Below are positions 23,556 through 41,803 of a DNA stretch of 64,000 bases, piece by piece. The notes under the pieces were generated by a model, which was not told the DNA's origin, did not search any database, and was given only the letters and a program-made list of their open reading frames with translations. Source of the stretch: Candidatus Omnitrophota bacterium (GTDB lineage Bacteria; Omnitrophota; Gorgyraeia; Zapsychrales; JANLHA01); assembly GCA_020632535.1 (NCBI GenBank), contig JACKFJ010000003.1:230166-294165 (forward strand), read 5' to 3'. The translations under genes and the position numbers were made by a program. The stretch's first letter is position 1. Each line of letters begins with the position of its first letter.

Positions 23556-24383
23556 ATGGCTCCAGCCGTAAAAAAATTAAAAGTTGGCATTTTAGGCTGT
23601 GGCGCAATCGGTTCGCGCATTGCTAAAAGCATTTATCAGGAATTAAAGGATTGTTGCCAACTCGTCGGGTTTTATGATTGCGATCCGGCAAAAATGACGA
23701 CACTCGCTAAAGTCTTAAAAAAAAACAATCTTAAAAAACGCTCCTTAAAAGAACTCATCCACAGTTGCGATCTTATGGTTGAAGCCGTCAACTCCGCAAA
23801 AACCGATGAATTTATCCACAAAGCCTTATCCGCTCGTCGCCATGTTTTGGCAATGAGCGTCGGAAAACTGCTTGACAACAGCAAGCTTTTTGCCACAGCA
23901 TCTAAAAACCGCTGCCAAATCCTTATTCCTTCCGGCGCGATTGCAGGACTAGATGCTCTAAAAGCCGCAAGTTTGGTCCATGTTGAAAGAATTATTCTCA
24001 CCAGCCGCAAACCCATCAATGGATTTACCCAAAATGATTACCTTGAAAAGCGAAAAATTTATTTATCTGCCTTAACTGACGAGACCGTACTCTTTGACGG
24101 CTCGGTTAAAGATGCCGTAAAACATTTTCCACAAAATATCAACGTCGCGGCAACACTAGCTCTTGCCAGCGGTATGCCGCAAAAGATTCGCGTGCGTATT
24201 GTCACTTCACCAGAGTATAAAATCAATTCCCACGAAATTGACATCAAAGGAGAATTTGGACACATCACAACCCGCGCGGAAAATGTCACGTGCCCGGATA
24301 ATCCTAAAACAAGCTGGCTCGCCGTTTTGTCGGCGATCCAAGCATTAAAAGACTTTTGTTCAGGAGCGCGTATCGGAACTTAA
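23556..24383 (+). CDS. nadX: L-aspartate dehydrogenase
   Basis: 275 aa; VGILGCGAIGSRIA Rossmann N-terminus and PSGAIAGLDALKAA block typical of the NadX family. Confidence 0.7.
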   Translation: MAPAVKKLKVGILGCGAIGSRIAKSIYQELKDCCQLVGFYDCDPAKMTTLAKVLKKNNLKKRSLKELIHSCDLMVEAVNSAKTDEFIHKALSARRHVLAMSVGKLLDNSKLFATASKNRCQILIPSGAIAGLDALKAASLVHVERIILTSRKPINGFTQNDYLEKRKIYLSALTDETVLFDGSVKDAVKHFPQNINVAATLALASGMPQKIRVRIVTSPEYKINSHEIDIKGEFGHITTRAENVTCPDNPKTSWLAVLSAIQALKDFCSGARIGT

Positions 24384-24439
24384 GGACCGCGAGGTTCTTT
24401 TGCAGTTACAAAATACTAAAGGAAGGGGGGTGAACAATT

Positions 24440-24745
24440 ATGGCTAAAAAAGTTGCTAAAGTAGGCGTCAAGAAAGAAAAGGGATACCTTTATTTCGTCG
24501 ACAAGAACGGTGACGTTTCCGCCGCTATGATGGCGCGTGGGGATAAAAAAGGTGGCAAACCTAAGAAGGTTGCTAAAGCTGGAATTAAGAAAGAGTCTGG
24601 CTTCCTTTATTTCGTCGATAAAGACGGAGACATCGCTTGTGCCGCTATGGTTCGCGGTGGTGCAAAAAAGAAGAAGTCTGCAAAAAAAGCTACAAAGAAA
24701 GTTGCTAAAAAAGCTACAAAAAAAGTCGCTAAAAAGCGCAAATAG
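24440..24745 (+). CDS. small highly basic protein with internal tandem repeat and Lys-rich tail
   Basis: 101 aa. Two ~40-aa repeats (KKVAKVGVKKEKGYLYFVDKNGDVSAAMMARG / KKVAKAGIKKESGFLYFVDKDGDIACAAMVRG) followed by KKATKKVAKKATKKVAKKRK. Strong RBS AAAGGAAGGGGGG upstream; a terminator follows. Confidence 0.7.
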   Translation: MAKKVAKVGVKKEKGYLYFVDKNGDVSAAMMARGDKKGGKPKKVAKAGIKKESGFLYFVDKDGDIACAAMVRGGAKKKKSAKKATKKVAKKATKKVAKKRK

Positions 24746-24758
24746 TCGTAAACATCAA

Positions 24759-24817
24759 ATAACCCTCAGACCTATTTTTGTCGTGTGACAAGAAAAAGTT
24801 TGGGGGTTATTTTTTTA
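24759..24817 (+). terminator. rho-independent terminator after the basic-protein gene
   Basis: ATAACCCTCAGAC (24759-24771) pairs, with G.U wobbles, with GTTTGGGGGTTAT (24798-24810), followed by a T-run to 24817. Confidence 0.6.
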
Positions 24818-24922
24818 TCCTGCGCAGCAGATGGGAGACTTGACGGTTAAAACAAATTAGCGTAAAGTTGTGCATATTAAAAATTAGTCCATTGCGAGAA
24901 ACGCAGTAACGAGGCAATCCAA

Positions 24923-27715
24923 ATGAATACTGATTTCATCACAATCCATAAAGCGCGCGAGCATAATCTCAAAAGCATTGATGTTAAGATACCGCGCAAT
25001 CAATTGACCGTTGTCACTGGTCTTAGCGGGTCAGGAAAATCTTCATTAGCATTCGATACCATATATGCCGAAGGTCAGCGTCGCTACGTCGAAAGCTTAT
25101 CCGCTTACGCGCGACAATTTCTAGAGCAATTGCAAAAGCCAGATGTCGAGTACATTGAAGGTTTGTCGCCGACAATTTCAATTGAGCAAAAAACCACAAG
25201 CCGCAACCCGCGTTCGACCGTCGCGACACAAACTGAAATCTATGATTATTTACGACTTTTATTTGCCCGCGTCGGCACACCATATTGCCATAATTGCGGC
25301 AAGCCCATCGAACGCCAAACCGTTGAAGAAATTACTCGCCAAATTTTAAGTACTCCGGAGGGGACTAAAATCAATGTCCTCGCTCCTTTAATCCGTGGCC
25401 GTAAAGGCGAATATCGTGATATCGGCAAGCAAGTATCCAAAGCTGGTTTTGTCCGCTATCGTGCCGACGGCGTGATTCACGAAGTCGAAGACAAAGTCAA
25501 ATTTGATAAATTCAAAGTCCATCATATTGAAATTGCTGTTGACCGACTCGTCATTAAAAGTACCATTAAGAAACGCTTGACCGACTCTTTAGAAACCGCG
25601 TTAAAAATTGGCGAAGGCATTGTCATCATCGATTTTCATGGCCAACAGCCGGAAAAAACGTTTAGTGAGCGTTACGCCTGCGTTGACTGCGGAACCAACT
25701 TACTGGAAATAGAACCACGAATTTTTTCGTTTAATTCACCTTACGGTGCTTGCCCAGATTGCAACGGTCTCGGCACTAAAATGGAAATAGATGCTAATCT
25801 TTTGATTCCGGACGTCAACAAGCCATGGGTCCAATCCATTGCCCCATGGAAACGTGGAAACAAAAATTATTTGATGTATTACCGCGCGGTCATGCGTGAA
25901 ATTGGTGCAAAATATCGCATTGATCAGCAAACCCTGTTTAAAGATCTGCCAACAAAGTTTAAAAATATTATTTTTAAAGGTTCCGCTGATGAAGTATGGG
26001 GGAAACCTTTCGAAGGGATTCTTAATTATTTAAAAAGACTTTTCAAAGAGACGGACAGCGAATGGCTACAAGGTGAAATCAATCAATACATGTCCGAGTC
26101 ACCATGCCCCAGCTGTGAAGGCCGCCGACTTAAAAAAGAATCTCTCGCGGTAAAAATTAGCGGTAAAAATATCGCGCAAGTCACTGAATTTTCAATTAAG
26201 GAAAGCAAGGTTTTCTTTAATTCGCTAAAGCTTAATAATGAAAAACAAAAAATCAGTGAACAAATCTTTAAAGAAATCCAGCGACGCTTAGATTTTTGTA
26301 TTGACGTCGGTCTTGAATATTTGACATTGGATCGCAAAAGCGGCACTCTTTCCGGAGGGGAAGCGGAACGAATTCGCTTAGCCACTCAAGTTGGTTCAGG
26401 TCTCGTCGGCGTTATTTATATCCTTGATGAACCATCAATCGGACTTCACCAAAAAGACAATGAACGTTTGCTTTCGACATTACATTCCTTGCGCGATATC
26501 GGCAACACTTTGATTGTCGTTGAACACGACGAAGACACAATTCGTAACGCGGATTACATTATTGACATGGGACCCGGAGCAGGAGAATTCGGAGGAGAAG
26601 TCATCTACGCCGGCGACATTGCTGGACTTTTAAAGTCGCCAAAATCTTTGACAGGACAATATCTCCGCGGCGAATTAAACATCGAAATGCCAAAAAAGCG
26701 CCGCGAAACTGTTAGAACAAAATTTTTAAAATTAAGTGGGGTCAAAGAACACAATCTCAAGAATATCGATGTATCTTTTCCATTAGGAACATTTATATGT
26801 ATTACCGGCGTATCCGGTTCCGGCAAGTCAACACTGATCAACGATGTCCTTTATAAAGCTCTCGCTCAAAAGATTAATCACGCAAATGAAAAGCCGGGAA
26901 ATTTTAAAAAACTTGATGGTGTTGAAAATGTCGATAAAGTCATTGTTGTCGATCAATCGCCAATTGGGCGCACACCACGTTCTAATCCCGCGACATACAC
27001 TGGTGTGTTTAGCTTAATTCGCGATCTTTTCAGTCAAATGCCCGAAGCGAAAATGCGTGGATACAAACCAGGCCGCTTCAGTTTTAATGTCCCCGGAGGG
27101 CGCTGCGAAGCATGTCACGGAGACGGTATCAAAAAGATTGAAATGCATTTTTTGCCAGACATTTATATTGAATGTGAAGTTTGCCACGGCAAGCGATTTA
27201 CCGAACAGACGCTTGATGTTCTTTATAAAGAGAAAAGCATCAGTGATGTTTTAAATTTGTCGGTAAACGAAAGTTTAAAAATTTTTGAAAATATCCCACG
27301 AATACGAAATGTCACACAAACATTGTGTGATGTCGGTCTCGGTTATATAAAACTTGGCCAACCAGCCACGACGCTTTCCGGAGGGGAAGCCCAGCGCGTA
27401 AAACTCGCTTCCGAACTGTGCAAGCCCGCAACCGGAAAAACTCTTTATATTCTTGATGAACCGACAACCGGTTTACACTTTGCGGACGTTGATAAACTTA
27501 TGACAGTTTTGCAAAGACTCGTTGATCGCGGTAATACCATTATTGTCATTGAGCATAATTTGGAAGTTATTAAAAACGCGGATTACATCATTGATCTTGG
27601 ACCAGATGGCGGGGACAAGGGAGGAGAAATTGTTTTTAGCGGTACGCCGGAAGCACTTTGCTTAAATAAAACTTCACACACAGCAGAATATCTTAAAAAA
27701 ATTCTTAAAGTCTAA
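24923..27715 (+). CDS. uvrA: excinuclease ABC subunit A
   Basis: 930 aa; two ABC modules ([48 protein letters not shown]) and CxxC zinc modules. Confidence 0.95.
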
Positions 27716-27739
27716 AGCCCTTGTTATAATACCTTCACT

Positions 27740-30232
27740 ATGAAAGCTAAATTTAATAAAGTTTGTATTTTTTTATTTTTCTTTACTGGCGCGGCCTTAG
27801 CAAATTCGCCTACGGTCTATGCCGACCAGCAAGAAGAAGAACTCTTTCTCGTTGCTGAAAAATCCTTCGATGATGGCTTTTACGATGTGGCCATGCGCTA
27901 TGTCGAGCAGTTTCAGCAAAAATATCCCAACTCACAAAAAAGTGTGCAGGCCAAACTGCTTTTAGGGCAGTGTTACTTTTTTAAAAATCAGTATTTAAAA
28001 GCCTTTGAAATCTTTCAGTCCCTTTCGCAATATACAGAATTTCGCGACGCGACGCTATTTTGGCTTGGCGAAACCTACTTTAAGGGTGGTGATTTTAAGC
28101 AAGCAGAAAAAAATTATCAACAGCTCATCAATACATACGCGAATTCAAACTATATCCCCCAAGGGCTTTATTCGCTCGGCTGGACATATTTTGAACAGAC
28201 ACGCTATAAAGACGCGAAAGATATATTTGCCAAACTCATTGCCCGTTTTCCGACTCACAGTTTAAGCGAAGAAGCGGCGTTCAAAATGGGCGAATGCAGC
28301 CATAATGCTGGAGAACACGAAGTGGCCATCAAATACTTTAAAGACTTTGTCACAATTTATCCAAAATCCAATCGCATTACGGAAGCCTATTTTTTTATCG
28401 CTGAATCCTACTACAACGATCAAGACTACCTGACCGCGGTCAATTTTTATGCGCAAGCCGCAAATAAAGCCTATGATCCCAAAATCACCGTTCTTTCTAA
28501 ACTTGGTATGGGATGGAGTTATTTAAAATTACAAAAGTTTGATCTCTCGCTAAAAAGTTTTCAAGAGGCAGATACCGTCGCGCGGGAGAAAAATATTCCT
28601 TCGGAAGATATCCTTCTGGGGTTGGCAACCCTTTACGCTGATGCGGGGGACAATCAAAAAGCAGGGGAGACGTATCAAAAGATGATTACGCAATATCCAC
28701 AAAGTCCCCACTTAGCCGAAGCTTTTCTTGGCAAAGCCAATTGCGATTATGCTCTTACCAAATACTCTGATGCCGTTACAAGCTATCAGCATTTGATTCA
28801 AAGTTTTGCCAAAAATACATCACAAACTGAAGTCGTTGAAAAAGCTTATTACGGCTTAGCATGGACATACTTAAAAAGTGGTAAGACCGATTTGGCCATT
28901 CAAAGCTTTCAAGATATCGTCACAAAATCGACAAGCAAAATCGCCCGCGTCAGCGCTTTAACGCAAATCGCAGATGCTTATCAAGAAATCAATCAGCTTG
29001 ATAAAGCAGTCGAAATTTATGACCAAATTCTTCGCGAATATCCCGATACCATTTATACGGATTACGCACAATTCCGTCAAGGAATCACGCTTTTAAAAGC
29101 CAATAAAATCGAAGCCGCAACGCTTTCATTCCAAAGCCTGCAAGCCAATTTTCCCAAAAGCAAATATCTTGAAGAAGTAAAATATTATCTCGGATTAGCG
29201 TATTTCAAAAAGGAAGAGTGGGAGCAGGCGATCCGTATGGTTAAAGCCTATATCGACGATCCTAGTGAAAACAAAAACTTTGTTGCCGAGGCTAACTATC
29301 TTTTGGGGCTCGCGAATTTCAACCTCAAAAAATATGAATCGGCACTCATGAATTTCCAAAAAATCGTAAAAAACTTTTCGCAGCAAAAGAGCATGGTTCA
29401 AATTGCCGAACTGTATACCGCTAAATCCTTATTCGCCATGAACAAACCAAAGGATGCACTCGAAAAATTTACCGCAATCACAAAACTATATCCTAAAACT
29501 GATAGCGCCGCGGAAGCATTAGTTTGGCTCGGTGACTATTATCTTGATAAAGCAGCGTTTCCTGAGGCGATTGAATACTATAATCAATTCATCAATTCTT
29601 TTCCTCAAAGTGAAAAAATCAATTTGATTATTTATGAACTTGGACAAAGTTATCAAGGGGCAGGACGACTTGATGAAGCTTTGAATGCTTACAAGCGTGT
29701 TACTGAAAATCCTGATAAGGAAATTTTCGCAAAAGCCAAACTCGCCGTAGCTGATATTTTTTCTCGCGATATGGATCGTCAAACCGCAATCACGACGTAT
29801 CAAAATATTGCCAAAAGCGTTCCAGAATTTAAAAAGGATGCCTTGCTGCGGATTGCCGAAATTTATCGTACGGACAAAGAATATCTGCAAGCCATTAATT
29901 CCTATGAAGAAGCTTTGAATTCCAGCAAAACCTTGTCGAAAAGTGACGCCGCGTCCATTCAATTTGAAATCGGTGATACTTATGAGCTTCTTCACAATTC
30001 AACAAAAGCTGTGGAGTCTTATTTAAAAATCTCCTATCTTTATCCTGATGAGAAGGCTTGGGTCATAAAATCTTATTTACGTCTAGCACGTATTTTTGAA
30101 GATGATTCAAAATGGGAAGAAGCCGCGACAATTTACAAAAAAGTTATTGTTTTTAACACCGATGAAGCCAAATATGCCAAAGAACGATTAGATTGGATTG
30201 CCAGCAACTCAAAAGGATCCCATCATGAATGA
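27740..30232 (+). CDS. secreted multi-TPR repeat protein (YbgF/CpoB-like repeats)
   Basis: 830 aa. Signal peptide MKAKFNKVCIFLFFFTGAALANSPTVYA. Repeated A..Y.LG..Y TPR-like units throughout. The stop overlaps the exbB-like start. Confidence 0.8.
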   Translation: MKAKFNKVCIFLFFFTGAALANSPTVYADQQEEELFLVAEKSFDDGFYDVAMRYVEQFQQKYPNSQKSVQAKLLLGQCYFFKNQYLKAFEIFQSLSQYTEFRDATLFWLGETYFKGGDFKQAEKNYQQLINTYANSNYIPQGLYSLGWTYFEQTRYKDAKDIFAKLIARFPTHSLSEEAAFKMGECSHNAGEHEVAIKYFKDFVTIYPKSNRITEAYFFIAESYYNDQDYLTAVNFYAQAANKAYDPKITVLSKLGMGWSYLKLQKFDLSLKSFQEADTVAREKNIPSEDILLGLATLYADAGDNQKAGETYQKMITQYPQSPHLAEAFLGKANCDYALTKYSDAVTSYQHLIQSFAKNTSQTEVVEKAYYGLAWTYLKSGKTDLAIQSFQDIVTKSTSKIARVSALTQIADAYQEINQLDKAVEIYDQILREYPDTIYTDYAQFRQGITLLKANKIEAATLSFQSLQANFPKSKYLEEVKYYLGLAYFKKEEWEQAIRMVKAYIDDPSENKNFVAEANYLLGLANFNLKKYESALMNFQKIVKNFSQQKSMVQIAELYTAKSLFAMNKPKDALEKFTAITKLYPKTDSAAEALVWLGDYYLDKAAFPEAIEYYNQFINSFPQSEKINLIIYELGQSYQGAGRLDEALNAYKRVTENPDKEIFAKAKLAVADIFSRDMDRQTAITTYQNIAKSVPEFKKDALLRIAEIYRTDKEYLQAINSYEEALNSSKTLSKSDAASIQFEIGDTYELLHNSTKAVESYLKISYLYPDEKAWVIKSYLRLARIFEDDSKWEEAATIYKKVIVFNTDEAKYAKERLDWIASNSKGSHHE

Positions 30233-30893
30233 AATAAGCGCACAACAATTACTTTTTGCCGGAGGGCCCATCATGGTCCCAATCATCCTTTGTTCAATCG
30301 CCGCTATAACAATTACGATCAACAAGGGTCTTTACTTTAAACGAATCCATACTGATGTGGCCTTACTAAAATCGAAAACCTTTTCCCTTATTCGTGATAA
30401 TAAAATCAAAGATGCCGTCGCTCTTTGTGAAAATAATCCAGCGCCGGCCGCCCGTATTCTCAAAGCCGGACTTCTCAAATTCGGTTCTTCCCGTGATGAA
30501 ATCAAAGACGCGATTGAATATGCCGCGTCGCTAGAAGTCCCAAATCTCGAAAAAGGCCTGATGCCATTGATCACAATCGCCAACATTACACCTTTATTCG
30601 GCATCGTTGGAACTGTTCTGGGAATGACGATCATTTTTCAAACAATCCAAGCCCAAAATGCTGGCATGCATCCCTTGACACCATCAGATCTCTTCGGAGG
30701 CATTTGGCAAGCACTTTTGACAACACTTGCAGGTCTCATCGTTGCCATTCCAACATTTGTCACATACAATTATTTTTTAAGCCGTGTAGGACGATGTCTG
30801 AATCAAATGGAACAAATCGGGGGAGAGCTAATCAATTTGCTAACACGTTTAAACGAGTCAAACAGCAGCCAAATCGCAGACCCGCTCGAATAA
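30225..30893 (+). CDS. MotA/TolQ/ExbB-family proton-channel protein
   Basis: ITPLFGIVGTVLGMTIIFQTI and LLTTLAGLIVAIP blocks typical of ExbB/TolQ. ATG at 30225 preceded by AAAAGGA; 8-nt overlap with the TPR gene. Confidence 0.85.
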   Translation: MNEISAQQLLFAGGPIMVPIILCSIAAITITINKGLYFKRIHTDVALLKSKTFSLIRDNKIKDAVALCENNPAPAARILKAGLLKFGSSRDEIKDAIEYAASLEVPNLEKGLMPLITIANITPLFGIVGTVLGMTIIFQTIQAQNAGMHPLTPSDLFGGIWQALLTTLAGLIVAIPTFVTYNYFLSRVGRCLNQMEQIGGELINLLTRLNESNSSQIADPLE

Positions 30894-30894
30894 C

Positions 30895-31299
30895 ATGAAA
30901 TTCAAATGTCAACTCAAAGTCGCAACCGGCCTTTTGCCGATCACATTCGCGCCAATCCTTAATTTGATATTACTGCTAATCATGTTTCTCATGCTCACAC
31001 CGTTTATTAGTTATCCGACGTCGATTCATACGTACCTCCCAAGAACCATCACAAGCGATATCGTTCCTGAACACACAACAACAATTACAATCACCAGCGA
31101 AGATATTATTTATTTTGAAAATGGAATTTTGACAGATAAGGAACTCCGCAAGATTCTTCAAACGCCGTCGTTAAAAAAGCAGCCTATTCTCATTAAAGCC
31201 GACGGACGTTCGTCATTGGCACGCGTCATTGACGTCTGGAATGTCTGCCGTGAGCTCGGCCTAGAACGAGTAAACATCGCGACCACAATGAGCAAATAA
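30895..31299 (+). CDS. ExbD/TolR-family protein (atypical: Asn at the conserved membrane Asp position)
   Basis: 134 aa. TM segment FAPILNLILLLIMFLML aligns with E. coli ExbD TPFIDVMLVLLIIFMV. The periplasmic part PILIKADGRSSLARVIDVWNVCRELGLERVNI fits the ExbD fold pattern. Confidence 0.8.
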   Translation: MKFKCQLKVATGLLPITFAPILNLILLLIMFLMLTPFISYPTSIHTYLPRTITSDIVPEHTTTITITSEDIIYFENGILTDKELRKILQTPSLKKQPILIKADGRSSLARVIDVWNVCRELGLERVNIATTMSK

Positions 31300-31307
31300 C
31301 AACCACC

Positions 31308-31742
31308 ATGCAGAATTACACTCAACAGAATTTCTTTAACCCTTTGAGCATTGGGCTTATCACATCACTTGTATTACATTTTTTATTTTTTCATTCGATT
31401 ACTTTTAAATTCAACCCGCTCATAAGACCAACTCATACCGAGATCACTTTTTTGGGCGCGATTCTCGATCCCTTTGAAGTCGAAGAAATCAAATCCAAGC
31501 GATCACTATCCAAAACGATCTCTGCCGATTTAGCAAGAATACCCGAACCATCCGGTCGTGCCATTACAGCACCGGCCAAACCCAGCATGACTAGTGGCAT
31601 AAACACGAATCGTTCTAAAGTTGTATTCCGTGAACGCGTTCAACCGCCAGCCAAGCCACAAGAAAAAAACTCTAAAAATGAAAATTTGATCGAAAAAGAT
31701 TTTTCCATAAAACCATATAAAAAATTAAGGTTATATCAATGA
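31308..31742 (+). CDS. TonB/TolA-like N-terminal membrane anchor protein lacking a recognisable C-terminal domain
   Basis: 144 aa. Single N-terminal TM segment LITSLVLHFLFF with the S-x3-H spacing of the TonB/TolA signal anchor. Pro/Lys-rich middle (QPPAKPQEK). No TonB C-terminal motif seen. Confidence 0.45.
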   Translation: MQNYTQQNFFNPLSIGLITSLVLHFLFFHSITFKFNPLIRPTHTEITFLGAILDPFEVEEIKSKRSLSKTISADLARIPEPSGRAITAPAKPSMTSGINTNRSKVVFRERVQPPAKPQEKNSKNENLIEKDFSIKPYKKLRLYQ

Positions 31743-31990
31743 TCCAAATTGATTTTGCCTGGACCATAACATTTTTAATTTCTCTCATACCATTGCTTGT
31801 ATTGTGGTTATGGATATTCTATACTACTGATTGTAGTCAAACAGAAAACGAATCATCTGATTTGGAGCAATGTCCGTTTTGCACATATTTATTTTTCAAA
31901 TTCACAATCAAAACATTTGTCATTTGTCCTCGTTGCAAAAGTCTTATTAATGCAGACGAAAATGTTAAGACAAATCCGGAGATAACATGA
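31739..31990 (+). CDS. small membrane protein with C-terminal four-Cys zinc-ribbon
   Basis: 83 aa; TM segment WTITFLISLIPLLVLWLWIFY, then CPFC-x17-CPRC; ATGA overlaps on both sides. Confidence 0.5.
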   Translation: MIQIDFAWTITFLISLIPLLVLWLWIFYTTDCSQTENESSDLEQCPFCTYLFFKFTIKTFVICPRCKSLINADENVKTNPEIT

Positions 31991-32322
31991 AGAAAATAAA
32001 TTCTTTAAAAAATGATAGTGGCATAATTCTCGTTACAGTTGTTATTTTGGTTCTCGTTTTATCGATTGTTGCCATTGGTGTTATGGGTCTTAACGTAAGT
32101 CAAGTCAAAACTGCATCATCCGTTGTCGACACCATTAAAGCGGAGCAATTAGCCACTGGGCTTCTTTTTCAAGATCATCAGCGTAAAATTGATGGTACTG
32201 GGACAACTCCCACTTCAATTACAATCGGTTCCACAACTTATGCCATCAACCGCAGCGAAACAGCAGGGAGTGGCGCGACGCCCAACAACGCGAACCAGAT
32301 CCAGTTTAATATTTCGTATTAA
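31987..32322 (+). CDS. PilX-N-like minor pilus/pseudopilus component
   Basis: 111 aa. N-terminus SGIILVTVVILVLVLSIVAIGVMGLN resembles the PilX N-terminal segment (no G/FTLxE cleavage motif). Thr/Ser/Gly-rich C-terminus. Confidence 0.45.
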   Translation: MKKINSLKNDSGIILVTVVILVLVLSIVAIGVMGLNVSQVKTASSVVDTIKAEQLATGLLFQDHQRKIDGTGTTPTSITIGSTTYAINRSETAGSGATPNNANQIQFNISY

Positions 32323-32471
32323 TGTCATTCCCTTCATAAAATCATCCGAATATTTTTGATAATTAACTTTATTTCAAAGAACATCTCCCTTATAATGAAA
32401 TCCAATTGATCACGTCTGTTGCTTCACAACAGATTAAACATGTACTATTACCCTAGTGATAACACTATAAA

Positions 32472-34016
32472 ATGTTTTTCTCGAAATCATCGACTGAAAA
32501 AAGCCAGCTAGGCATCTACTGGGGCAAAGACGCTTTTTGTTTTGTTGAAAGCAAAAAAGGTCAGCCTGATAAAATTGCCTATGTTAATTTTGATACACCA
32601 ATCGCAGGAGATCAGGGACAAAAAATCCCCGAAGGGCTGCGCTTAACTGCTTTAATTCAGCAAGTTATCCGTGAAAAGAAATTCACCTGCAAAAAAATAA
32701 ATCTTTCCCTCTCCGTTAAGGATGTCATTTATCGTTCATTCGTCATTCCCTTCATGCAGCCGGCAGAAGTCAAAAGCGTTGTTGACTTTGAAGCGACAAA
32801 ATACATTCCGATCAAACTGGAAGATTTAGCTTACACATTTCATGCAATCCCTTTTAGCGAAGGAGATCAGAAAAACTTACGTATTTTGTTTGTCGCGACA
32901 CGCAAAAATAGCGTTGAACGATACACCAACATTCTACAACAATCTGGATTAGAAACTGAATTCATTGAACCCGCATCGGTCAGCTTAATTCGCATTTTAC
33001 AAAAACAAGGACATATCCCCAAACAACAGGCTACTGGTATCATCGAAATCGAAAATGAAGGCGGTCGAATCACCGTAACAGATAAAGATGTCATTCAATT
33101 CGTCAGAGAGTTTCAATCGTCAATTGAAGGTACCGGACTTCCGGCAGAAAACGCAAAATTCTTCAATGACATTCATGTCGCTTTTAATTTTTATCAAAGA
33201 CAAAATCCGCAAGGAAAATTAGATCGCATTCTCACGTTATCAACAAATGATCTTAGCCCACTTGCAGCTGGATTAAGTCAGGAGTTTAAAGTCCCTGCAA
33301 CATCTTTAACCGTCGCAAAAATTCTTAAAACGGAGCAAATCAGCGACTCAGGGATGTTGAGTGCCGCCGGAGCGGCGATCCGCGAAAAGGCATCGACCAG
33401 TAAAAATTTTGATTTGACGACCAAAATCAAAACTAATAAAACTGGACTTGAAAGCAGCGGTGTTTTTGCAAATTGGAATTTAAAACTATTAGGTATTTGT
33501 GTTGGAGCTTCGATCGCTTTAATTTATTTAACGTCGTTGTGGTCGACAAGCTCAATTGCAGATGCCAAAAAACGTTCTGCAAATTTATCAAAAAAACTCG
33601 GTATTTATGAATCGTCTCCAAAAGAAAAAATTACCGAACTTAAGGACGGTGTTGTTAGTAAGCTCAATCAATATCAAGATGTTCGCACAAAAAGTAATAT
33701 CACATACTATTTAAAGAAAATCCCAAAGATGTTGCCACCTGGCGCATGGCTTAACAATTTTAATATTGAATATTACGAAGGGGCCGAGACCCAGGATGGT
33801 ATTCTTAGACGTGTTTCAAACGTAGCGCTTTCGATGGATGGCTATATTTATCTACCCACGTCTAATGAGCAACTTCGCCAAATCAATACTATGGTCGCAA
33901 AGATGAAAAATGACAAAGAACTATCAAAACTTTTTAAAGAAATCGTTTTAGCAAATGTTAAACAGGAAAATTTCAATAATTATTCTGTAACCAATTTCAG
34001 GATCGGCTGCAAATAG
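32472..34016 (+). CDS. PilM-PilN fusion (GspL/MshI-like) inner-membrane assembly protein
   Basis: 514 aa. N-terminal ~320 aa with a PilM/actin-like pattern (LGIYWGKDAFCFVE..., FEATKYIPI). Single TM segment LLGICVGASIALIYLTSLW. ~150-aa periplasmic domain. Confidence 0.6.
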   Translation: MFFSKSSTEKSQLGIYWGKDAFCFVESKKGQPDKIAYVNFDTPIAGDQGQKIPEGLRLTALIQQVIREKKFTCKKINLSLSVKDVIYRSFVIPFMQPAEVKSVVDFEATKYIPIKLEDLAYTFHAIPFSEGDQKNLRILFVATRKNSVERYTNILQQSGLETEFIEPASVSLIRILQKQGHIPKQQATGIIEIENEGGRITVTDKDVIQFVREFQSSIEGTGLPAENAKFFNDIHVAFNFYQRQNPQGKLDRILTLSTNDLSPLAAGLSQEFKVPATSLTVAKILKTEQISDSGMLSAAGAAIREKASTSKNFDLTTKIKTNKTGLESSGVFANWNLKLLGICVGASIALIYLTSLWSTSSIADAKKRSANLSKKLGIYESSPKEKITELKDGVVSKLNQYQDVRTKSNITYYLKKIPKMLPPGAWLNNFNIEYYEGAETQDGILRRVSNVALSMDGYIYLPTSNEQLRQINTMVAKMKNDKELSKLFKEIVLANVKQENFNNYSVTNFRIGCK

Positions 34017-34019
34017 AAT

Positions 34020-34667
34020 ATGCCTCCGCAACCACCCAAAAAAATCACGAGTCTGCATCAAATTGATATTTCCAAATTGGATGTCAAGGATCTGCAGAAT
34101 ATTGATTTTCAAAAAATCCTGAAAGATGCGCGTCAACGTCCAGACACGGCTATTGCTTTTGCTGTTCCAATACTCGCTCTTTTCATATGCTTCAATATAT
34201 TTACAAAATCACAAAATGAGAGAAGAATTGTTACAACTAAAATCAAGGAAATGGAAGCCAAAGTCAAATTGGTCGATGAATACAATACCGCTCAGGAAGA
34301 ATTTCAAACATTTTTGGATACCATGCCAGCAAAAATTACGGAAGATGAATTTATTACTAAAATTACCGATTTTGCTGTGAAGAACCACGTGCAGATCGAA
34401 TCATTCTCTCCAGCTCAAAACAAGAGCGATCCCATTTACGATTTAAAATTAATTAACTTGACTGCAAACGCCCAAGATTTCAATGATATGGGACATTTTA
34501 TTCAAGATATTGAAAATTCCGGTTTATCGATTCGAATCAATAGCTGGAATGGCAATATGGGGCCGCAAGCACAAGGCGGAGCACGCCGCGCAATCGATCC
34601 CAATAATCCAAACGGACTCGTCATTAATTTTCGTCTCGAAGTCGCCTCAGTGACATTTAAACAATGA
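34020..34667 (+). CDS. PilO/GspM/MshJ-like bitopic assembly protein
   Basis: 215 aa; cytoplasmic N-terminus, TM segment AIAFAVPILALFICFNIFT, coiled-coil segment, periplasmic ferredoxin-like-sized domain; position between PilMN and the secretin. Confidence 0.5.
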   Translation: MPPQPPKKITSLHQIDISKLDVKDLQNIDFQKILKDARQRPDTAIAFAVPILALFICFNIFTKSQNERRIVTTKIKEMEAKVKLVDEYNTAQEEFQTFLDTMPAKITEDEFITKITDFAVKNHVQIESFSPAQNKSDPIYDLKLINLTANAQDFNDMGHFIQDIENSGLSIRINSWNGNMGPQAQGGARRAIDPNNPNGLVINFRLEVASVTFKQ

Positions 34668-35221
34668 AAAAATTATTCATAACAACCGCCTTTACCTTTT
34701 TGCTTCTAAACCCGCTTTTGGTTTATGCTCAAAATATTTCGCAATCACCCATTACACAATTAAAATCAATCATTCAAACACCGCCACCGGACCCATTACA
34801 AACTACCCTTGAGAAAATCAACCAAAATAAAAATCAAAAAAATTCAAGAACTGACGACGATTCTGAAGAAGAAACACAAATAGAGATATTTATCAATCCC
34901 TTTGTTCCACAGATTCCAAAAGATATTAAGCCAGTCGCGGTGAACCCGCAAAACGACAACCAAAATTTGCAAACTCAACCAGTTCCCGTTATCCCTACGC
35001 CACAATTTATTGTTTCCGGATTAATTTGGAACAGTAAAAAACCAGCCGCGATTATGAACGGTCAAGTCGTAGCGATTGGTGATCAGGTAAGCAACTGGGC
35101 TATTTCTGAAATCACAAAAGATGGTGTTCGCGTCTCATATGAAGACCGCAGTTTATGGATTAAACCCATTGTAGATCCCATGAGCCAGCCGCAACAGGCA
35201 ACTCCGGGAAGACGATTTTGA
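34664..35221 (+). CDS. PilP/GspB(T2SSB)/MshK-like periplasmic secretin-associated protein
   Basis: 185 aa. Signal peptide, Pro/Gln/Asn-rich linker, C-terminal block FIVSGLIWNSKKPAAIMNGQVVAIGDQVSNWAISEITKDGVRVSYEDRSLWI typical of PilP/GspB-type domains. Confidence 0.55.
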   Translation: MKKLFITTAFTFLLLNPLLVYAQNISQSPITQLKSIIQTPPPDPLQTTLEKINQNKNQKNSRTDDDSEEETQIEIFINPFVPQIPKDIKPVAVNPQNDNQNLQTQPVPVIPTPQFIVSGLIWNSKKPAAIMNGQVVAIGDQVSNWAISEITKDGVRVSYEDRSLWIKPIVDPMSQPQQATPGRRF

Positions 35222-35250
35222 ACAGTACAAGACAGGACAAAGGAGTCATT

Positions 35251-36789
35251 ATGTTGAAAAAAAATCTTATCATATTATTTCTAGGATGCACAATACTTTA
35301 CAGTACGAACATAGCGATCGCTGCTGATATTGATATCGACACTTCAAGCTCATTTCTTTATCCTGGATTCTCGAAAAAAATATCCATGGATTTTCAAGAC
35401 GCGTCTTTAGTCGATGTCTTAAAAATATTTTCACAGCAGACAAGTATTAATCTCATATCGTCAGAAGAGATCGCTGGAAAGCGTGTTACCGTATATCTTG
35501 ACAATGTTCCAGTCGAACAAGCCCTTGAACAAGTTTTACGGGCCAACAGCTTGACATATGAATTACAACCCGATAGTAATATCTACATTGTCAAACCCCT
35601 CGCAAAACCCGAAATTGAACTCTTAACCCGTGTTTATCTACTCAAACATGCCAGCGTCAGTACGGCACGCATCGGTAAAACCTTAAAAATTGTTTATACC
35701 GTTGATCAAGGTACTACACAGGAAGTAACCGAAAGCACCAAAGGCGGATCTTCTGGTGGTTCATCTGGAGCAGGCGGAGAAGGAAGTCCTGGTATAATGA
35801 GCGCACTTAAGGGAGTTATTACGGCCAAAGGCACTATCGTTGAAGATAGCCGGACAAACAGTCTGACGATTACCGATATCGCGAGCAATTTTAAAAACAT
35901 TGAAACCGCCTTAGCAAAACTCGACACACCCGTTCCGCAAGTTTTAATTGAAGTCGAAATGCTTGAAGTTTCAAAAGAGGTGGGAGATAAAATCGGTGTC
36001 AAATTTGGCGAAACACCACTAACGTTTAATGGCGGAACGCGCGCTGTACTTTACCCCTGGAATCAGAATAAAATTCTACAAAAAGGTTTTGAATTTGAAG
36101 AGGAGTGGACAGCAGGGACGCTCAGTGCCACGGGGATGACCGCTATCCTACAATTTCTTCAAACACAAAGCGATACCAAAAATTTAGCTAGACCACGAAT
36201 TTTAACACTTAACAATCAGCCAGCACAAATTAAAATTGCAACACAGGAAGCTATTGGTTTAACAGAAAGTACGACATCATCACAAAATTTAGCAACAGCA
36301 ACGAGTTCCGCGGAGCGTGTTGAAACCGGCGTTTTCTTAACCGTCACACCACAGGTCGACATCGTTAATAATGAGATTACCATGGCCGTCGTTCCGAAAG
36401 TCATCACGACCACACCCAGCTCAATTACGACGGGTGGTGTTACCCTCAAAGATCCCGAAGAAAGAGGTTCATTGTCAATTTTGCGCGTAGCCAGCGGTGA
36501 TACAGTTGCACTTGGCGGTTTACTACGTGAAGATCACACAACCGTCGTTACTAAAATACCTTTTCTTGGCGATATTCCCTTTATTGGATCGGCATTCCGT
36601 CATAAAACCGAAAACCTTGAGAATCGTGAATTAATCATCTTTTTAACACCGCATATTCTTGAAGATGGATTACAAAAGAATGCCCAAACACCAAAGCGTC
36701 CGATTTTTCGTGAGCAGACTGAACCTTCCCAAAACCGCTTAGAAACTGTCGAACGCGAATTGTCAAACACTCAAAGAAAAAAATTATAA
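35251..36789 (+). CDS. secretin (PilQ/GspD/MshL family)
   Basis: N0/STN-like block MDFQDASLVDVLKIFSQQTSINL. C-terminal secretin signature GDTVALGGLLRED..TKIPFLGDIPFIGSAFRHK....RELIIFLTPHIL. ATG at 35251 preceded by AAGGAG (the track start at 35218 is TTG). Gly/Ser-rich insert at 35737-35793. Confidence 0.9.
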   Translation: MLKKNLIILFLGCTILYSTNIAIAADIDIDTSSSFLYPGFSKKISMDFQDASLVDVLKIFSQQTSINLISSEEIAGKRVTVYLDNVPVEQALEQVLRANSLTYELQPDSNIYIVKPLAKPEIELLTRVYLLKHASVSTARIGKTLKIVYTVDQGTTQEVTESTKGGSSGGSSGAGGEGSPGIMSALKGVITAKGTIVEDSRTNSLTITDIASNFKNIETALAKLDTPVPQVLIEVEMLEVSKEVGDKIGVKFGETPLTFNGGTRAVLYPWNQNKILQKGFEFEEEWTAGTLSATGMTAILQFLQTQSDTKNLARPRILTLNNQPAQIKIATQEAIGLTESTTSSQNLATATSSAERVETGVFLTVTPQVDIVNNEITMAVVPKVITTTPSSITTGGVTLKDPEERGSLSILRVASGDTVALGGLLREDHTTVVTKIPFLGDIPFIGSAFRHKTENLENRELIIFLTPHILEDGLQKNAQTPKRPIFREQTEPSQNRLETVERELSNTQRKKL

Positions 36790-36790
36790 A

Positions 36791-38503
36791 ATGGCGCATT
36801 TAAAGTTAGGTGAAATTCTGCTTCAGCAAGGATTGCTCAATGAAGAGCAGCTGCGCGAAGCCATACAAGTCCAAAAAAGAGATTCTGGACGTATCGGAGA
36901 AATTCTCATTAAATTGGGTTTTCTCACGGAAGAAGATATTGTTGCGGCATTGGGAAGTCAATTGAATATTCCTCATGCTAGTAGCCAAAACAATCTGCTC
37001 AAACCCCGCGTCGATCAAAATTTAGATAAAATTCTTCCATACGACTTTGCGAAAACAAATCTTGCCTTACCACTAAGCAAGGAAGACAACAAACTCACAT
37101 GCGCGGTTGATGATCCGCTTGACTTGCTAATGCTTGATAATTTGCGAATGGTCACAGGGTGCGAAGTGTCGTTAGTCCTTGCTACCCGTTCCGATCTCAT
37201 GGCTGCCATTCAAGATTTTTATACTTTAGCGCGATCCAATGCAGGGACACCTATGGCGCTGCCATCGGACAATATCGAAGGAGAAACACCTGTTCCTGCA
37301 GATCCTAAAGTTGGCCTCAAAGATAATAATTTGGATGACATGATTGAAAAAGCTGAAGAACCTCCTGTTATTAAACTTGTTGATTTGATTATCCGCCAAG
37401 CGATTGAACAGCGCGGCAGTGATATTCACATCGAATCCTATAAGGATAAAATTAATTTACGATACCGTATTGACGGTATCCTCTATCAAATTCCACCACC
37501 AGCCCGACATCTTTTATTACCAATTGTTTCTCGTCTTAAAATTCTTGCCAAACTCGATATTGCTGAAAAACGTTTGCCACAAGACGGATCCATTGCTTTT
37601 AAAATAGGTGAGAGGACTGTTGATTTGCGTATTTCAACTGTTCCGACAGTATGGGGCGAAAAAGTTGTTATGCGTATTTTAGATAAATCCGCGGTACCTC
37701 TACGTCTAGAAAATTTAGGTTTTAATGAAGTTCAGTTGGAACGCATCCGCAAAGCTCTCAAAAGACCATATGGCCTATTTTTCGTTACCGGTCCAACGGG
37801 AAGTGGAAAATCAACAACACTTTATTCCGCACTCAGTGAAGTCATGGATCCACGCAAAAATATCGTTACCGCTGAAGACCCGGTAGAATTCAAACTTGAC
37901 GGGATAAATCAGGTCGCAGTACGTCCTGACATCGGCTTAACATTTGCTTCTGTTCTGCGTGCTTTTTTACGTCAAGATCCTGATATCATCATGGTTGGTG
38001 AGGTTCGTGATCTTGAAACCGCACAAATCTGCGTTCGTGCGGCTTTAACAGGACACTTTGTTTTAAGTACCCTTCATACAAATGACGCATCCGCCGCCAT
38101 TACGCGTCTCTTGGATATCGGGATTGAATCATACCTTTTAACACCGTCGCTTTCGATGGTATTAGCACAGCGCTTGGCGCGCAGACTTTGCTCAAAATGC
38201 AAAGAGCCAATGGAACCAAATCCTGATCTTTTGGGTGGGCTTAAATTTAACAGCGACCTTATTTACAAAGCCGCGGGCTGTGATGAATGCAATCATACTG
38301 GCTACCGCGGCCGACTTGTTATTACGGAGGCCATGGTCATTGATGATAATTTGCGCGAACTTATGACCAAAAAGGCCGGCTATTCTGAAATTCTTGATGC
38401 CGCTCGCAAGGGTGGCATGGATACATTATTTGAAGACGGAATTAAAAAAGTCGAAGCAGGATTAACCAGTCTTGATGAAATTTTAAGTGTAACCGCACTT
38501 TAA
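36791..38503 (+). CDS. GspE/PilB/MshE-family secretion ATPase with MshEN-type N-terminal domain
   Basis: 570 aa; Walker A GPTGSGKSTT, Asp/His boxes, tetracysteine CSKC...CDEC; N-terminal tandem 24-residue MshEN motifs (residues 5-28 and 34-57). Confidence 0.92.
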   Translation: MAHLKLGEILLQQGLLNEEQLREAIQVQKRDSGRIGEILIKLGFLTEEDIVAALGSQLNIPHASSQNNLLKPRVDQNLDKILPYDFAKTNLALPLSKEDNKLTCAVDDPLDLLMLDNLRMVTGCEVSLVLATRSDLMAAIQDFYTLARSNAGTPMALPSDNIEGETPVPADPKVGLKDNNLDDMIEKAEEPPVIKLVDLIIRQAIEQRGSDIHIESYKDKINLRYRIDGILYQIPPPARHLLLPIVSRLKILAKLDIAEKRLPQDGSIAFKIGERTVDLRISTVPTVWGEKVVMRILDKSAVPLRLENLGFNEVQLERIRKALKRPYGLFFVTGPTGSGKSTTLYSALSEVMDPRKNIVTAEDPVEFKLDGINQVAVRPDIGLTFASVLRAFLRQDPDIIMVGEVRDLETAQICVRAALTGHFVLSTLHTNDASAAITRLLDIGIESYLLTPSLSMVLAQRLARRLCSKCKEPMEPNPDLLGGLKFNSDLIYKAAGCDECNHTGYRGRLVITEAMVIDDNLRELMTKKAGYSEILDAARKGGMDTLFEDGIKKVEAGLTSLDEILSVTAL

Positions 38504-38529
38504 ACAAATTTTTTAAGGAGTTTCCGCAC

Positions 38530-39777
38530 GTGCCACGTTTTCATTATGTTGCCAAAGATTCAAACGGAAAAAATATAACTGAAGAAACTGAAGCTTTTGA
38601 TAAAGCAAGCCTCATTCAATCACTTCAACAAAAAGGATACTTCATTCTCTCTGTTGAAGAGCAAGCCGCTACCTCAACACACATCGCAACAACAGAAGAA
38701 AGTACCAAAAAATTTACCCACTCGGGTATCAAGTTACTGGACATGCTCAACTTTGCCAATCAATTGGCAACAATGCTTGATTCCGGAATTACCATTTTAC
38801 GCGCACTGGAAGTTATTGTTGATCAGGTCGAAAGTAAAAACTTTTATGCGATTTTGCAGAAAGTTAATGCAGATGTTGAGCAAGGTAGTTCACTGAGCGA
38901 AGCCTTATCACGTTTTCCTAAAGTTTTTGACCAGTTGTGGGTCAGTCTTATCGAAGTCGGGGAAGCTTCCGGAACAATGCCAATGGTTCTTAAAAAACTG
39001 GCTTTTTATCTCGAACAAAAAGCCGCCTTTCGCGCAACCGTCACGTCGGCTGTTATGTATCCAGCTGTTCTTTTTGTCGTCTGTCTCGGCGCCATCGCCT
39101 TTTTCGCATTATTTATCGGCCCGCGTTTTGAAAGTATTTTTAACACAATGAACGTTGAATTGCCTTTGATTACCAAAGTCCTGCTTTCAACATTCCGTTT
39201 CATTAAAGAAAAATTTTTAATGCTAGTCATGAGTGTTGTCATTGGTATTTTCCTATTCCGCAAATACAGTAAAACGCCTATGGGCCGCGCGCATGTCGAA
39301 CAATTCCTATTTGGTTTGCCCGTTATCGGCAATATTGCCAAACTCATTGTTATCGAAAGATTTACTTCACAAATGTCCATTTTAGTCGACAGCGGGGTTC
39401 CTATTCTCTATGCTTTAGATATTACACAAAGGCTTGTAGATAATTCCATTTGCGCGGGCGTTATCAATGATATTAAAGAAAGTGTCCGACAGGGCGAATT
39501 GCTCGTCGCACCCATGCAACGCAGCAAATTTTTCCCTTCGATGTGTATTCAAATGATTTCCGTCGGCGAAGAAACCGGTGAATTGAGTAAAATGCTTACG
39601 CACGTTGCGACATATTATCAACAAACTGTCGAAACTTTTATGAAACGCCTTGGAACGCTCATTGAACCATTCATGCTTGTATTTATGGGGGGCGTTATTG
39701 GCGTCATTGTTCTTGCCATGTTCCTTCCCATGTTTAATATTGCGCAATTAGGTGGGGCAGGAGGGGCAAGACATTAA
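38530..39777 (+). CDS. GspF/PilC/MshG-family platform protein
   Basis: 415 aa; N-terminus PRFHYVAKDSNGK, duplicated T2SSF-type blocks (LSEALSRFPKVFD..., GEETGELSKML); GTG start preceded by AAGGAG. Confidence 0.9.
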   Translation: MPRFHYVAKDSNGKNITEETEAFDKASLIQSLQQKGYFILSVEEQAATSTHIATTEESTKKFTHSGIKLLDMLNFANQLATMLDSGITILRALEVIVDQVESKNFYAILQKVNADVEQGSSLSEALSRFPKVFDQLWVSLIEVGEASGTMPMVLKKLAFYLEQKAAFRATVTSAVMYPAVLFVVCLGAIAFFALFIGPRFESIFNTMNVELPLITKVLLSTFRFIKEKFLMLVMSVVIGIFLFRKYSKTPMGRAHVEQFLFGLPVIGNIAKLIVIERFTSQMSILVDSGVPILYALDITQRLVDNSICAGVINDIKESVRQGELLVAPMQRSKFFPSMCIQMISVGEETGELSKMLTHVATYYQQTVETFMKRLGTLIEPFMLVFMGGVIGVIVLAMFLPMFNIAQLGGAGGARH

Positions 39778-39804
39778 AATACCCCTGATTCGCAACCTCG
39801 CTTA

Positions 39805-41571: not shown

Positions 41572-41605
41572 TACTTTACATCTTTAGGTACAGGATCAGC
41601 TGAGG

Positions 41606-41634
41606 TTGACATTCCCTATTTGACATGTTATACC
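41606..41634 (+). promoter_or_regulatory. putative promoter of the pilin leader transcript
   Basis: TTGACA (41606-41611), 17-nt spacer containing a TG at 41626-41627 (extended -10 type), TATACC (41629-41634). Confidence 0.35.
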
Positions 41635-41654
41635 TTACCTAGAAAATTGGTATT

Positions 41655-41738
41655 GCTCGAAAAGGGTAAACTATCCGTAAGGGTAGGGCACAAAACTATA
41701 GGGTCCCGGCAAATTGTGGGGGATAGCCAGTTACCAGC
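41655..41738 (+). promoter_or_regulatory. candidate c-di-GMP-I (GEMM-I)-like riboswitch aptamer in the pilin leader
   Basis: Blocks occur in the same order as in the V. cholerae Vc2 aptamer as I recall it. AAAAGGGTAAA, then a 6-bp hairpin CTATCC-GTAA-GGGTAG (GNRA loop, 41671-41686). Next GGCACAAAAC (compare GACGCAAAGC). Next helix CTAT...ATAG (41696-41699 / 41723-41726). Finally CCAGTTACC (compare GGGGTTACC). GGTAA (41665-41669) can pair with TTACC (41731-41735). The core differs at several normally conserved positions. Confidence 0.4.
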
Positions 41739-41757
41739 AAAAAAAATTGCATAATGT

Positions 41758-41803
41758 GCCTATTCTAGGGTAGAATGAAACAAAATTAGAATAGGCATTT
41801 TTA
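41758..41803 (+). terminator. intrinsic-terminator-like hairpin (possible riboswitch expression platform)
   Basis: Perfect 10-bp stem GCCTATTCTA (41758-41767) / TAGAATAGGC (41787-41796) followed by ATTTTTA; lies between the candidate aptamer and the pilin start codon. Confidence 0.5.

Follow-up and report, generated by a model that had tools for sequence, protein, structure and literature searches.

In a 64,000-nt stretch of Candidatus Omnitrophota DNA (here called the window, to which all positions refer unless a locus is named), a module of genes for an envelope stator and its membrane partners stands at the head of a type IVa pilus gene cluster. The layout was established from the open reading frame (ORF) listing and a reading of positions 30100–32500. 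On the + strand, the gene of a large tetratricopeptide repeat (TPR) protein is followed by an exbB/tolQ-like gene, an exbD/tolR-like gene, the gene of a small anchor protein, a membrane Zn-ribbon gene and a PilX_N gene, and then by pilMN-O-P-Q-B-C (Table 1). This Omnitrophota module is a conserved operon for a Tol/Ton-class envelope system.

The successive junctions from the TPR gene through the PilX_N gene measure −8, +1, +8, −4 and −4 nt. The TPR stop codon (TGA, 30230–30232) and the exbB-like start (ATG at 30225) share an 8-nt overlap, ATGAATGA, and this start is backed by the N-termini of homologues (MNEISAQQ/MNQIDAKQ). A single spacer base separates the exbB stop codon (TAA, 30891–30893) from the exbD ATG at 30895; the anchor ATG at 31308 follows the end of exbD at 31299 after 8 nt, and the tetranucleotide ATGA is common to the anchor stop and the Zn-ribbon start (31739–31742), and again to the Zn-ribbon stop and the PilX-like start (31987–31990). 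An earlier sequence-only reading of this DNA had described the overlap at the exbB-like start, the 8-nt spacer before the anchor gene, both ATGA overlaps and the gene identities, and all of these were borne out (PF01618, PF02472 and PF14341 matched above their cut-offs, and the Zn-ribbon ORF is conserved). It had also placed exbD right behind exbB, which is correct, but at a distance of 2 nt, a count that was off by one. Junctions this close are common in the genome: among 57 same-strand junctions of the window, 25 are ≤10 nt and 16 overlap, so the packing of the module identifies an operon and nothing exceptional. A promoter and terminator scan of positions 24300–42000 gave counts close to the shuffled expectation, with no + strand terminator inside the module.

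Thirteen related loci were taken from species-representative genomes, and metagenome loci were gathered with an ExbD alignment; the relatives of the module lie on contigs named Omnitrophota. The order TPR-ExbB-ExbD-anchor-Zn-ribbon-(PilX)-PilMN-O-P-Q-B-C was found at 13 of 13 genome loci and at 26 of the 28 metagenome loci whose downstream sequence reaches 2.5 kb or more. The TPR gene lies upstream of exbB in every relative with sufficient sequence, and the spacing from exbD to the anchor gene has a median of −1 nt across relatives. Loci L013–L015, L017–L020, L022 and L024, which carry the Omnitrophota-type arrangement, are titled “uncultured Planctomycetales bacterium”, probably a label given at the level of the submission.

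Table 1 Genes of the module and of the adjoining pilus cluster in the window
Feature	Position	Strand	Basis
Secreted TPR protein, 830 aa, CpoB/YbgF- and BamD-type TPR_6 repeats; first gene of the unit	27740..30232	+	Pfam/NCBIfam
ExbB/TolQ-like stator subunit, 222 aa	30225..30893	+	PF01618, 95.5 bits (cut-off 22.9)
ExbD/TolR-like subunit, 134 aa	30895..31299	+	PF02472, 60.0 bits (cut-off 25.4)
TonB/TolA-like adaptor without head domain, 144 aa	31308..31742	+	Family alignments, AlphaFold2, profile searches
Membrane Zn-ribbon protein, 83 aa, N-terminal transmembrane segment, WIFY motif	31739..31990	+	Conservation, weak Zn-ribbon-type profile matches
PilX_N (PilX/GspK-type) pilin-like protein, 111 aa	31987..32322	+	PF14341, 27.7 bits (cut-off 25.5)
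PilM-PilN fusion, 514 aa	32472..34016	+	Pfam PilM_2, NCBIfam pilM; 149-nt gap after PilX-like gene
PilO	34020..34667	+	Pfam PilO
PilP-like	34664..35221	+	Gene order of the pilus cluster
Secretin with STN/N0, short (523 aa)	35218..36789	+	Pfam Secretin/Secretin_N/STN, NCBIfam PilQ
PilB ATPase	36791..38503	+	Pfam T2SSE/MshEN
PilC platform	38530..39777	+	T2SSF on orthologues in relatives, shared gene order

The stator pair and its missing carboxylates

Tol/Ton/Mot-type 5:2 stators are held to depend absolutely on one transmembrane (TM) Asp. In the ExbD-like protein of the window, the residue that aligns with this essential D25 of E. coli ExbD (6TYI) is N23 (AAT, nt 30961–30963). The conserved TM3 Glu of the ExbB-like protein is also replaced: in alignments to ExbB and TolQ of the Protein Data Bank (PDB), Q162 (CAA, nt 30708–30710) occupies the position of E. 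coli ExbB E176 and TolQ E173, with Thr still present at the counterparts of T148 and T181. Of 66 metagenome loci that could be scored at the Glu column, 65 have E, and Q occurs in the window clade, L020 and L024; at the Asp column, 78 of 79 metagenome relatives have D, and the window clade has N or S. At the 73 loci with both genes readable, the residue pairs were E/D in 62, Q/N in six, E/N in three and Q/D in two; L001, with Q/S, lies outside this motif-match count. On a neighbour-joining tree, in which the window falls within a long-branch, all-Gln clade, parsimony counts at least five changes at the Asp (D to N or S) and at least three at the Glu (E to Q). The sequences indicate that the stator losses of Glu and Asp recurred independently.

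The ratio of nonsynonymous to synonymous substitution rates (dN/dS) was measured between the window and L002, both of which are Q/N, at a dS of about 0.4–0.6. The values were 0.04 (ExbB), 0.08 (ExbD), 0.26 (anchor), 0.15 (Zn-ribbon protein) and 0.13 (PilX-like protein); the low values of the first two mean that the stator genes remain constrained. The same Asp-to-Asn change at the single conserved TM carboxylate is familiar from the laboratory mutants ExbD(D25N), TolR(D23) and MotB(D32N), which are inactive, whereas the change in Omnitrophota is natural, has recurred as counted above and stands under strong purifying selection. In E. coli, ExbD(D25N) serves as a standard inactive mutant (PMC11658791). 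The stator proteins are thus still needed in the window lineage, but probably not as a proton-driven motor, and since both acidic residues are replaced, the stator probably acts as a fixed scaffold. A naturally decharged yet constrained stator is the most surprising element of the module. The repeated natural loss of the Asp together with the ExbB Glu, under constraint, offers a test of 5:2 stator function without proton flow, and if the scaffold interpretation is true, the charge-free ring would be a natural case of a 5:2 motor that has become a scaffold.

The affinity of the pair was compared with the NCBIfam equivalog models. The ExbB-like protein scored 87.7 for TolQ (cut-off 221) and 55.2 for ExbB (cut-off 206), and the ExbD-like protein scored about equally for TolR (31.9, cut-off 127) and ExbD_2 (30.0, cut-off 123). 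TolQ also outscored ExbB for the ExbB-like proteins of the relatives, and those with the E/D pair likewise stayed below the equivalog cut-offs (TolQ 111–119, TolR 59–70). A single ExbB/ExbD pair was seen at each locus. Neither TolB nor Pal was found among the ORFs of the window, which were inspected by eye and not all profile-scanned, or in the related loci examined. By the same inspection and in the Pfam lists of called genes, no protein with the TonB C-terminal domain (TonB_C) and no TonB-dependent transporter was seen, the other loci having been screened only for homologues of the window cluster; the sequence-only reading had suggested that the motor may energize something other than a TonB-dependent receptor. 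The most fitting description of the module is that of a distinct Tol/Ton-class system belonging to neither equivalog.

With ExbB-ExbD-TonB of E. coli, the module shares the MotA_ExbB and ExbD domains, a single-pass adaptor with the S-x3-H motif, the stator-then-adaptor order and the TM2/TM3 Thr residues of ExbB; it differs in having no TonB_C, no nearby TonB-dependent transporter and, in the window, Asn for D25 and Gln for E176, in adding a co-inherited membrane Zn-ribbon protein and a large TPR protein, and in scores far below the equivalog cut-offs. Its likeness to Tol-Pal with CpoB/YbgF consists of TolQ/TolR as the best-scoring names, a co-encoded YbgF/CpoB-type TPR protein and a TolA-like S-x3-H anchor; in contrast to Tol-Pal, no TolB or Pal was found at the loci examined, the adaptor is without TolA domains II and III, and the module lies beside pilus genes. 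The Agl-Glt gliding machinery of Myxococcus xanthus, with its AglRQS stator and TonB-like GltG/GltJ, resembles the module in recruiting a TolQR/ExbBD-type stator to a non-transporter machine that spans the envelope. However, AglRQS keeps its Asp and is driven by the proton-motive force (PMF), has other partner proteins and is unconnected to pilus genes. A search of the literature returned no description of ExbB/ExbD beside pilMNOPQ, in Omnitrophota or elsewhere, nor of the anchor family described below.

Anchor, Zn-ribbon and TPR proteins

The TM segment of the anchor contains LITSLVLHFLFF (residues 17–28), with S20 at 31365–31367 and H24 at 31377–31379. The TonB/TolA-type S-x3-H signal anchor proposed in the sequence-only reading is therefore present, and its His is invariant in the family (19 of 19 and 29 of 29 aligned members); Ser stands at −4 of this His in 67 of 94 members, the remainder having mostly Ala or Thr. 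The corresponding E. coli mutant, TonB(H20A), is inactive (PMC11658791). The parts of the protein are a TM helix (residues ~12–30), an FLGAIL strand (48–53), a variable linker containing Pro and Lys, and the C-terminal PYKKLRLYQ (nt 31713–31739). The same pattern runs through the family as TM His, FLG(A/S)IL ~20 residues on, a linker of variable sequence that includes a KP motif, and (P)Y(K/Q)xLxL(Y) at the C-terminus, and the columns H24, F48, L49, G50, I52, L53 and L140 are invariant in the family alignments.

No TonB_C (PF03544/TIGR01352), TolA or related family was matched by the anchor in Pfam at E ≤ 1 or in NCBIfam at E ≤ 10, its sole Pfam match being the unrelated, sub-threshold YuiB (E = 0.14; 13.2 bits, cut-off 27). 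With an approximate E. coli TonB query, hhalign aligned only the TM segment, and not significantly. The AlphaFold2 model built from a 19-sequence alignment has one helix (residues 12–30) and no other secondary structure, with a mean predicted local distance difference test (pLDDT) score of 62.7; neither in this model nor in the profile searches is there a TolA domain II helix or a globular domain III. The profile search and the model, with its lack of a folded C-terminal domain, agree with the earlier claim that TonB_C and TolA domain III are missing from this protein.

Word-indexed searches with the anchor matched only Omnitrophota proteins of 137–170 aa without Pfam domains, and a HMMER search with the 19-sequence profile retrieved 411 cluster representatives at E ≤ 1e-3, 239 of them at E ≤ 1e-10. 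The length is 129–174 aa in nearly all of the best 150 of the 411 representatives, and shortening by an assembly error was rejected on the grounds of this common length among the best-listed members. The headless short form is a conserved trait of the family and not an accident. A headless adaptor family of at least 411 sequence clusters would mean that a TonB/TolA-type arm can use a short terminal motif in place of a globular domain.

A sister clade (alignment A8; L064:10399-11031, L087:10279-10905, L099:10399-11019 and others) has long anchors of 205–235 aa that keep S-x3-H and carry an extra conserved C-terminal segment of ~85 aa (YPxLPYxFxLYFKDRQxVHIE...RKISSGNLEADLLxMRYI...WQTVKIDLS), which looks TonB_C-like by eye. 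This segment matched nothing in Pfam, NCBIfam or a PDB profile search, and hhalign against TonB aligned only the TM segment. In the same clade, a 68-aa winged-helix-like gene follows the Zn-ribbon gene.

The headless adaptor is accompanied by a previously unannotated Zn-ribbon partner. The four Cys of this protein (C45, C48, C63 and C66; nt 31871–31936) are among 22 columns that are invariant over six lineages and that also include WIFY, QCPxCTY and CPRCxSLI. Such conservation of motifs across lineages rejects the ORF as an artefact; a PqiA-like assignment was also rejected, the match reaching merely 17.9 bits over the Cys motif. Public gene calls skipped the ORF at L001:3490-3723, L002:10432-10683 and L008:3027-3263, and it is therefore missing from protein databases for those genomes.

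The Zn-ribbon gene belongs with the anchor gene, the two being overlapping and gained or lost jointly. Their junction overlaps at 44 of 59 loci (median −4 nt), and in L104 and L076 both genes are absent together, with exbD and the pil genes kept. At L104:244-2710, exbD is followed by the pilus genes across an 80-nt gap; at L076:698-2610, ~600 nt without an intact ORF lie between them. The charge distribution in relatives suggests opposite topologies for the two proteins, with the N-terminus of the anchor inside, and that of the Zn-ribbon protein outside and its ribbon cytoplasmic.

The first gene of the unit encodes a protein with a signal-like N-terminus, as read off the translation. It matches Pfam TPR_6 at 5.4e-76 over 11 stretches and YfiO at 1.6e-32. 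Its NCBIfam tol_pal_ybgF score (TIGR02795; 269 bits, cut-off 90) is summed across 11 repeats of an 830-aa protein, and the full-length CpoB model is matched at 98.8 bits against a cut-off of 383. With at least 11 repeats, the protein is about three times longer than CpoB (~260 aa).

Mechanism and client of the module

The overall reading that we prefer, although we hold it tentatively and give it somewhat less than an even chance, is that the module forms an envelope scaffold, non-rotating in the window lineage, with the neighboring type IVa pilus machine as the most likely client. The His-bearing TM helix of the adaptor would pack on the ExbB-like ring, like that of TonB or TolA, and its unstructured periplasmic arm would reach a partner through the C-terminal PYKxLxLY instead of a globular TonB_C. 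This motif would dock probably as an added beta-strand or as a TPR-bound peptide, the candidate partners being the co-encoded TPR protein and the secretin/PilP side. The Zn-ribbon protein, of opposite topology and with a cytoplasmic ribbon, may provide a cytoplasmic handle for the complex. Ancestrally, the stator was presumably proton-driven, because most relatives keep the Glu/Asp pair; in the window clade, where both carboxylates are now amides and the five genes are under purifying selection, it would have become a static, envelope-spanning tether or scaffold. The pilus could be served either through the secretin/PilP side or through the TPR protein acting on the pilus machine.

The assignment of the pilus as client is possible and is the weakest step of this proposal; the pilus connection is at once its most consequential and its least secure element. 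In its favor, the PilX_N gene lies close behind the Zn-ribbon gene in most lineages and overlaps it in the window, and the order from the TPR gene through pilC recurs at all 13 genome loci and at 26 of 28 long metagenome loci. Type IVa pili are near-universal in Omnitrophota, and F-type ATPases, not this module, were noted beside pilus clusters by Seymour et al. (PMC10066038). A precedent is offered by two TonB-family proteins, TonB3 of Pseudomonas aeruginosa (PA0406) and TonB2 of Acinetobacter baumannii, which are functionally tied to type IV pilus assembly, twitching and natural transformation (PMC8811193). Unlike the module, neither is accompanied by an ExbB/ExbD pair of its own in front of pilMNOPQ, and the pilus link of the Omnitrophota module is positional only. 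Both are TonB paralogues with a C-terminal domain. Should the pilus be the client, the module would give a mechanistic handle on the long-standing puzzle of why TonB paralogues influence type IV pili, and would bear on how the ultra-small, host-attached Omnitrophota make pili thought to mediate attachment.

Several observations weigh against the scaffold-and-pilus reading. First, the immediate upstream neighbor is uvrA at 27 of 28 loci, a position as fixed as the pil adjacency (26 of 28), and an aminotransferase-HPPK-PanC-AspDH block also recurs upstream of the module; with unrelated upstream genes equally fixed, adjacency to the pil genes carries little weight. Second, the gap from the PilX-like gene to pilM has a median of 367 nt, is never ≤25 nt and often holds an excisionase-type helix-turn-helix (HTH) gene. 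The spacing from the Zn-ribbon to the PilX-like gene is itself variable (median 17 nt) and looser than the tight unit that ends at the Zn-ribbon gene. Third, L087:6549-20274 and L099:6780-20321, which form one tree subclade, keep TPR-ExbB-ExbD-anchor-Zn-ribbon with E/D intact, and no homologue of the window pil genes was detectable in the 9 kb downstream at either locus; where the pilus cluster would be expected there are ORFs that resemble NadE, Lrp, an aminotransferase and GlnA, as judged by eye from the N-terminal sequences. Fourth, a second, Asp-bearing ExbD or another ion path may be present elsewhere in the genome, beyond the 64-kb window. Finally, we know of no type IV pilus system that needs its own ExbB/ExbD.

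These results bear on the suggestion of the sequence-only reading that the motor energizes the adjacent pilus/secretin apparatus. The proximity of the module to pilus genes held for the large majority of loci, but the outcome that had been named as refuting it, a module in relatives without pilus genes nearby, was found in the minority represented by L087 and L099. The word “energize” became doubtful for the window lineage, because its stator is without both canonical carboxylates (N23 and Q162) and the E. coli mutant ExbD(D25N) is inactive. The motor–pilus link itself was weakened by a pil adjacency no better than that of uvrA, by the break between the PilX-like gene and pilM, and by L087 and L099. 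We consider it rather unlikely that the bolder form of the pilus proposal applies, namely that Omnitrophota pili carry a dedicated Tol/Ton-type stator as an integral accessory, with its headless arm docked by a C-terminal strand on the secretin/PilP/TPR side and with a Zn-ribbon partner reaching the cytoplasm. In this form, the ancestral stator would have gated, anchored or remodeled the envelope around the pilus by means of proton flow, and in several lineages, the window lineage among them, it would now be a charge-free, non-rotating ring.

The best-surviving alternative, which we regard as possible though less probable than the scaffold-and-pilus reading, is a Tol-like system for envelope maintenance or division, composed of a CpoB-like TPR protein, TolQ, TolR and a minimal TolA, with the outer membrane or peptidoglycan as its target and no involvement of the pilus, and lying beside the pil genes only through frozen gene order. 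The best NCBIfam names of the stator pair, the YbgF/CpoB model match of the TPR protein and the TolA/TonB S-x3-H anchor of the adaptor are consistent with it, as are the equal conservation of the uvrA neighborhood, the operon break before pilM and the two loci that keep the module with no pil genes in 9 kb downstream. Additionally, in the parts of the PMC10066038 supplement consulted, the KEGG Orthology (KO) lists of two Omnitrophota genomes contain no separate TolQ/R/A/B/Pal entries. A Tol-like assignment is opposed by the lack of TolB and Pal in the window (by inspection) and in the loci examined, by scores far below the TolQ/TolR equivalog cut-offs, by an adaptor that has neither TolA domain II nor domain III, and by the pilin-like PilX_N gene that is usually packed just behind the Zn-ribbon gene. 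Moreover, Tol function is PMF-dependent, yet the Q/N stator is kept under strong purifying selection.

It is improbable that ExbB/ExbD constitute a general Ton motor for a canonical TonB and transporters encoded elsewhere, with the anchor and the Zn-ribbon protein as accessory or regulatory factors. The same two KO lists, as far as seen in that supplement, do pair K03559/K03561 (ExbD/ExbB) with K03832 (TonB) and K02014 (TonB-dependent receptor), and just one ExbB/ExbD pair was seen per locus; however, these two genomes may lie outside the window clade, neither a TonB_C gene nor a receptor came to light on inspection of the window ORFs or at the related loci examined, the window stator is without the Asp required for Ton activity, and in most lineages translational coupling ties exbD to a dedicated adaptor.

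We attach equally little probability to trans-envelope signaling, in which the adaptor arm would sense the state of the TPR protein or secretin and the Zn-ribbon protein would relay it inward, e.g., to PilM/PilB or a regulator. The coupled and co-inherited anchor and Zn-ribbon genes, with the opposite topologies predicted from charge distribution, the tolerated loss of the carboxylates and the small HTH regulator genes that separate the module from pilM in many relatives would fit such a relay; at the same time, Pfam and NCBIfam reveal no known signaling or DNA-binding domain in the anchor or the Zn-ribbon protein, the window itself has no such regulator genes, and the idea draws on architecture only.

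That the module is a decaying, functionless relic in the window lineage, as the loss of both canonical carboxylates and the long branches of the Q/N clade might suggest, is highly improbable given that all ORFs are intact, the invariant anchor and Zn-ribbon motifs are retained, and dN/dS is 0.04–0.26 between two Q/N genomes at the dS given above.

Pilus genes and other features of the window

In the PilX-like protein, whose gene is conserved in relatives, a Gly stands ahead of the hydrophobic helix and position +5 is not Glu. The AlphaFold2 model of this protein, from a single sequence, consists of a long N-terminal helix and a hairpin at low confidence (pLDDT 61.7). The components of a type IVa pilus (PilM, PilN, PilO, secretin, extension ATPase and platform) are encoded together in the window. 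The window secretin gave no Pfam AMIN-domain match at E ≤ 1. Inspection of the ORFs in the 64 kb turned up no PilT-like gene, and PilB was the one T2SSE-type ATPase noticed.

The genes found before pilM in many relatives include an excisionase-family HTH_17 gene; L064:12136-12327, L064:11299-11505, L007:11617-11802 and L010:3717-3902 cover both regulator types, i.e., this one and the winged-helix-like one, neither of which is present in the window. The best NCBIfam match of the HTH_17 gene was the MADS1 antiphage HTH, below its cut-off.

Four prepilin-type genes lie downstream of the pilus machinery in the window. The first two (41919–42341 and 42450–42860) match ComP_DUS, the first with 35.7 bits against a cut-off of 27.3. 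ComP_DUS is the fold of the DNA-binding minor pilin ComP, and the match hints at DNA uptake by the pilus. The pilin genes are flanked by three paralogues with a polytopic membrane domain and C-terminal TPRs (39805–41571, +; 43918–45936, −; 48289–50127, +), one of them with a PMT_2 glycosyltransferase match, and by an ICMT/PEMT-like membrane methyltransferase (45949–47283, −). The membrane-TPR paralogues and the methyltransferase might modify pilins or the envelope.

Upstream of the module, positions 24440–24745 encode a Lys-rich protein of 101 aa with an internal duplication (KKExGxLYFVDKxGD...A.M.RG, present twice), a basic tail and no Pfam match; in relatives, a small gene occupies the same slot between AspDH and UvrA.

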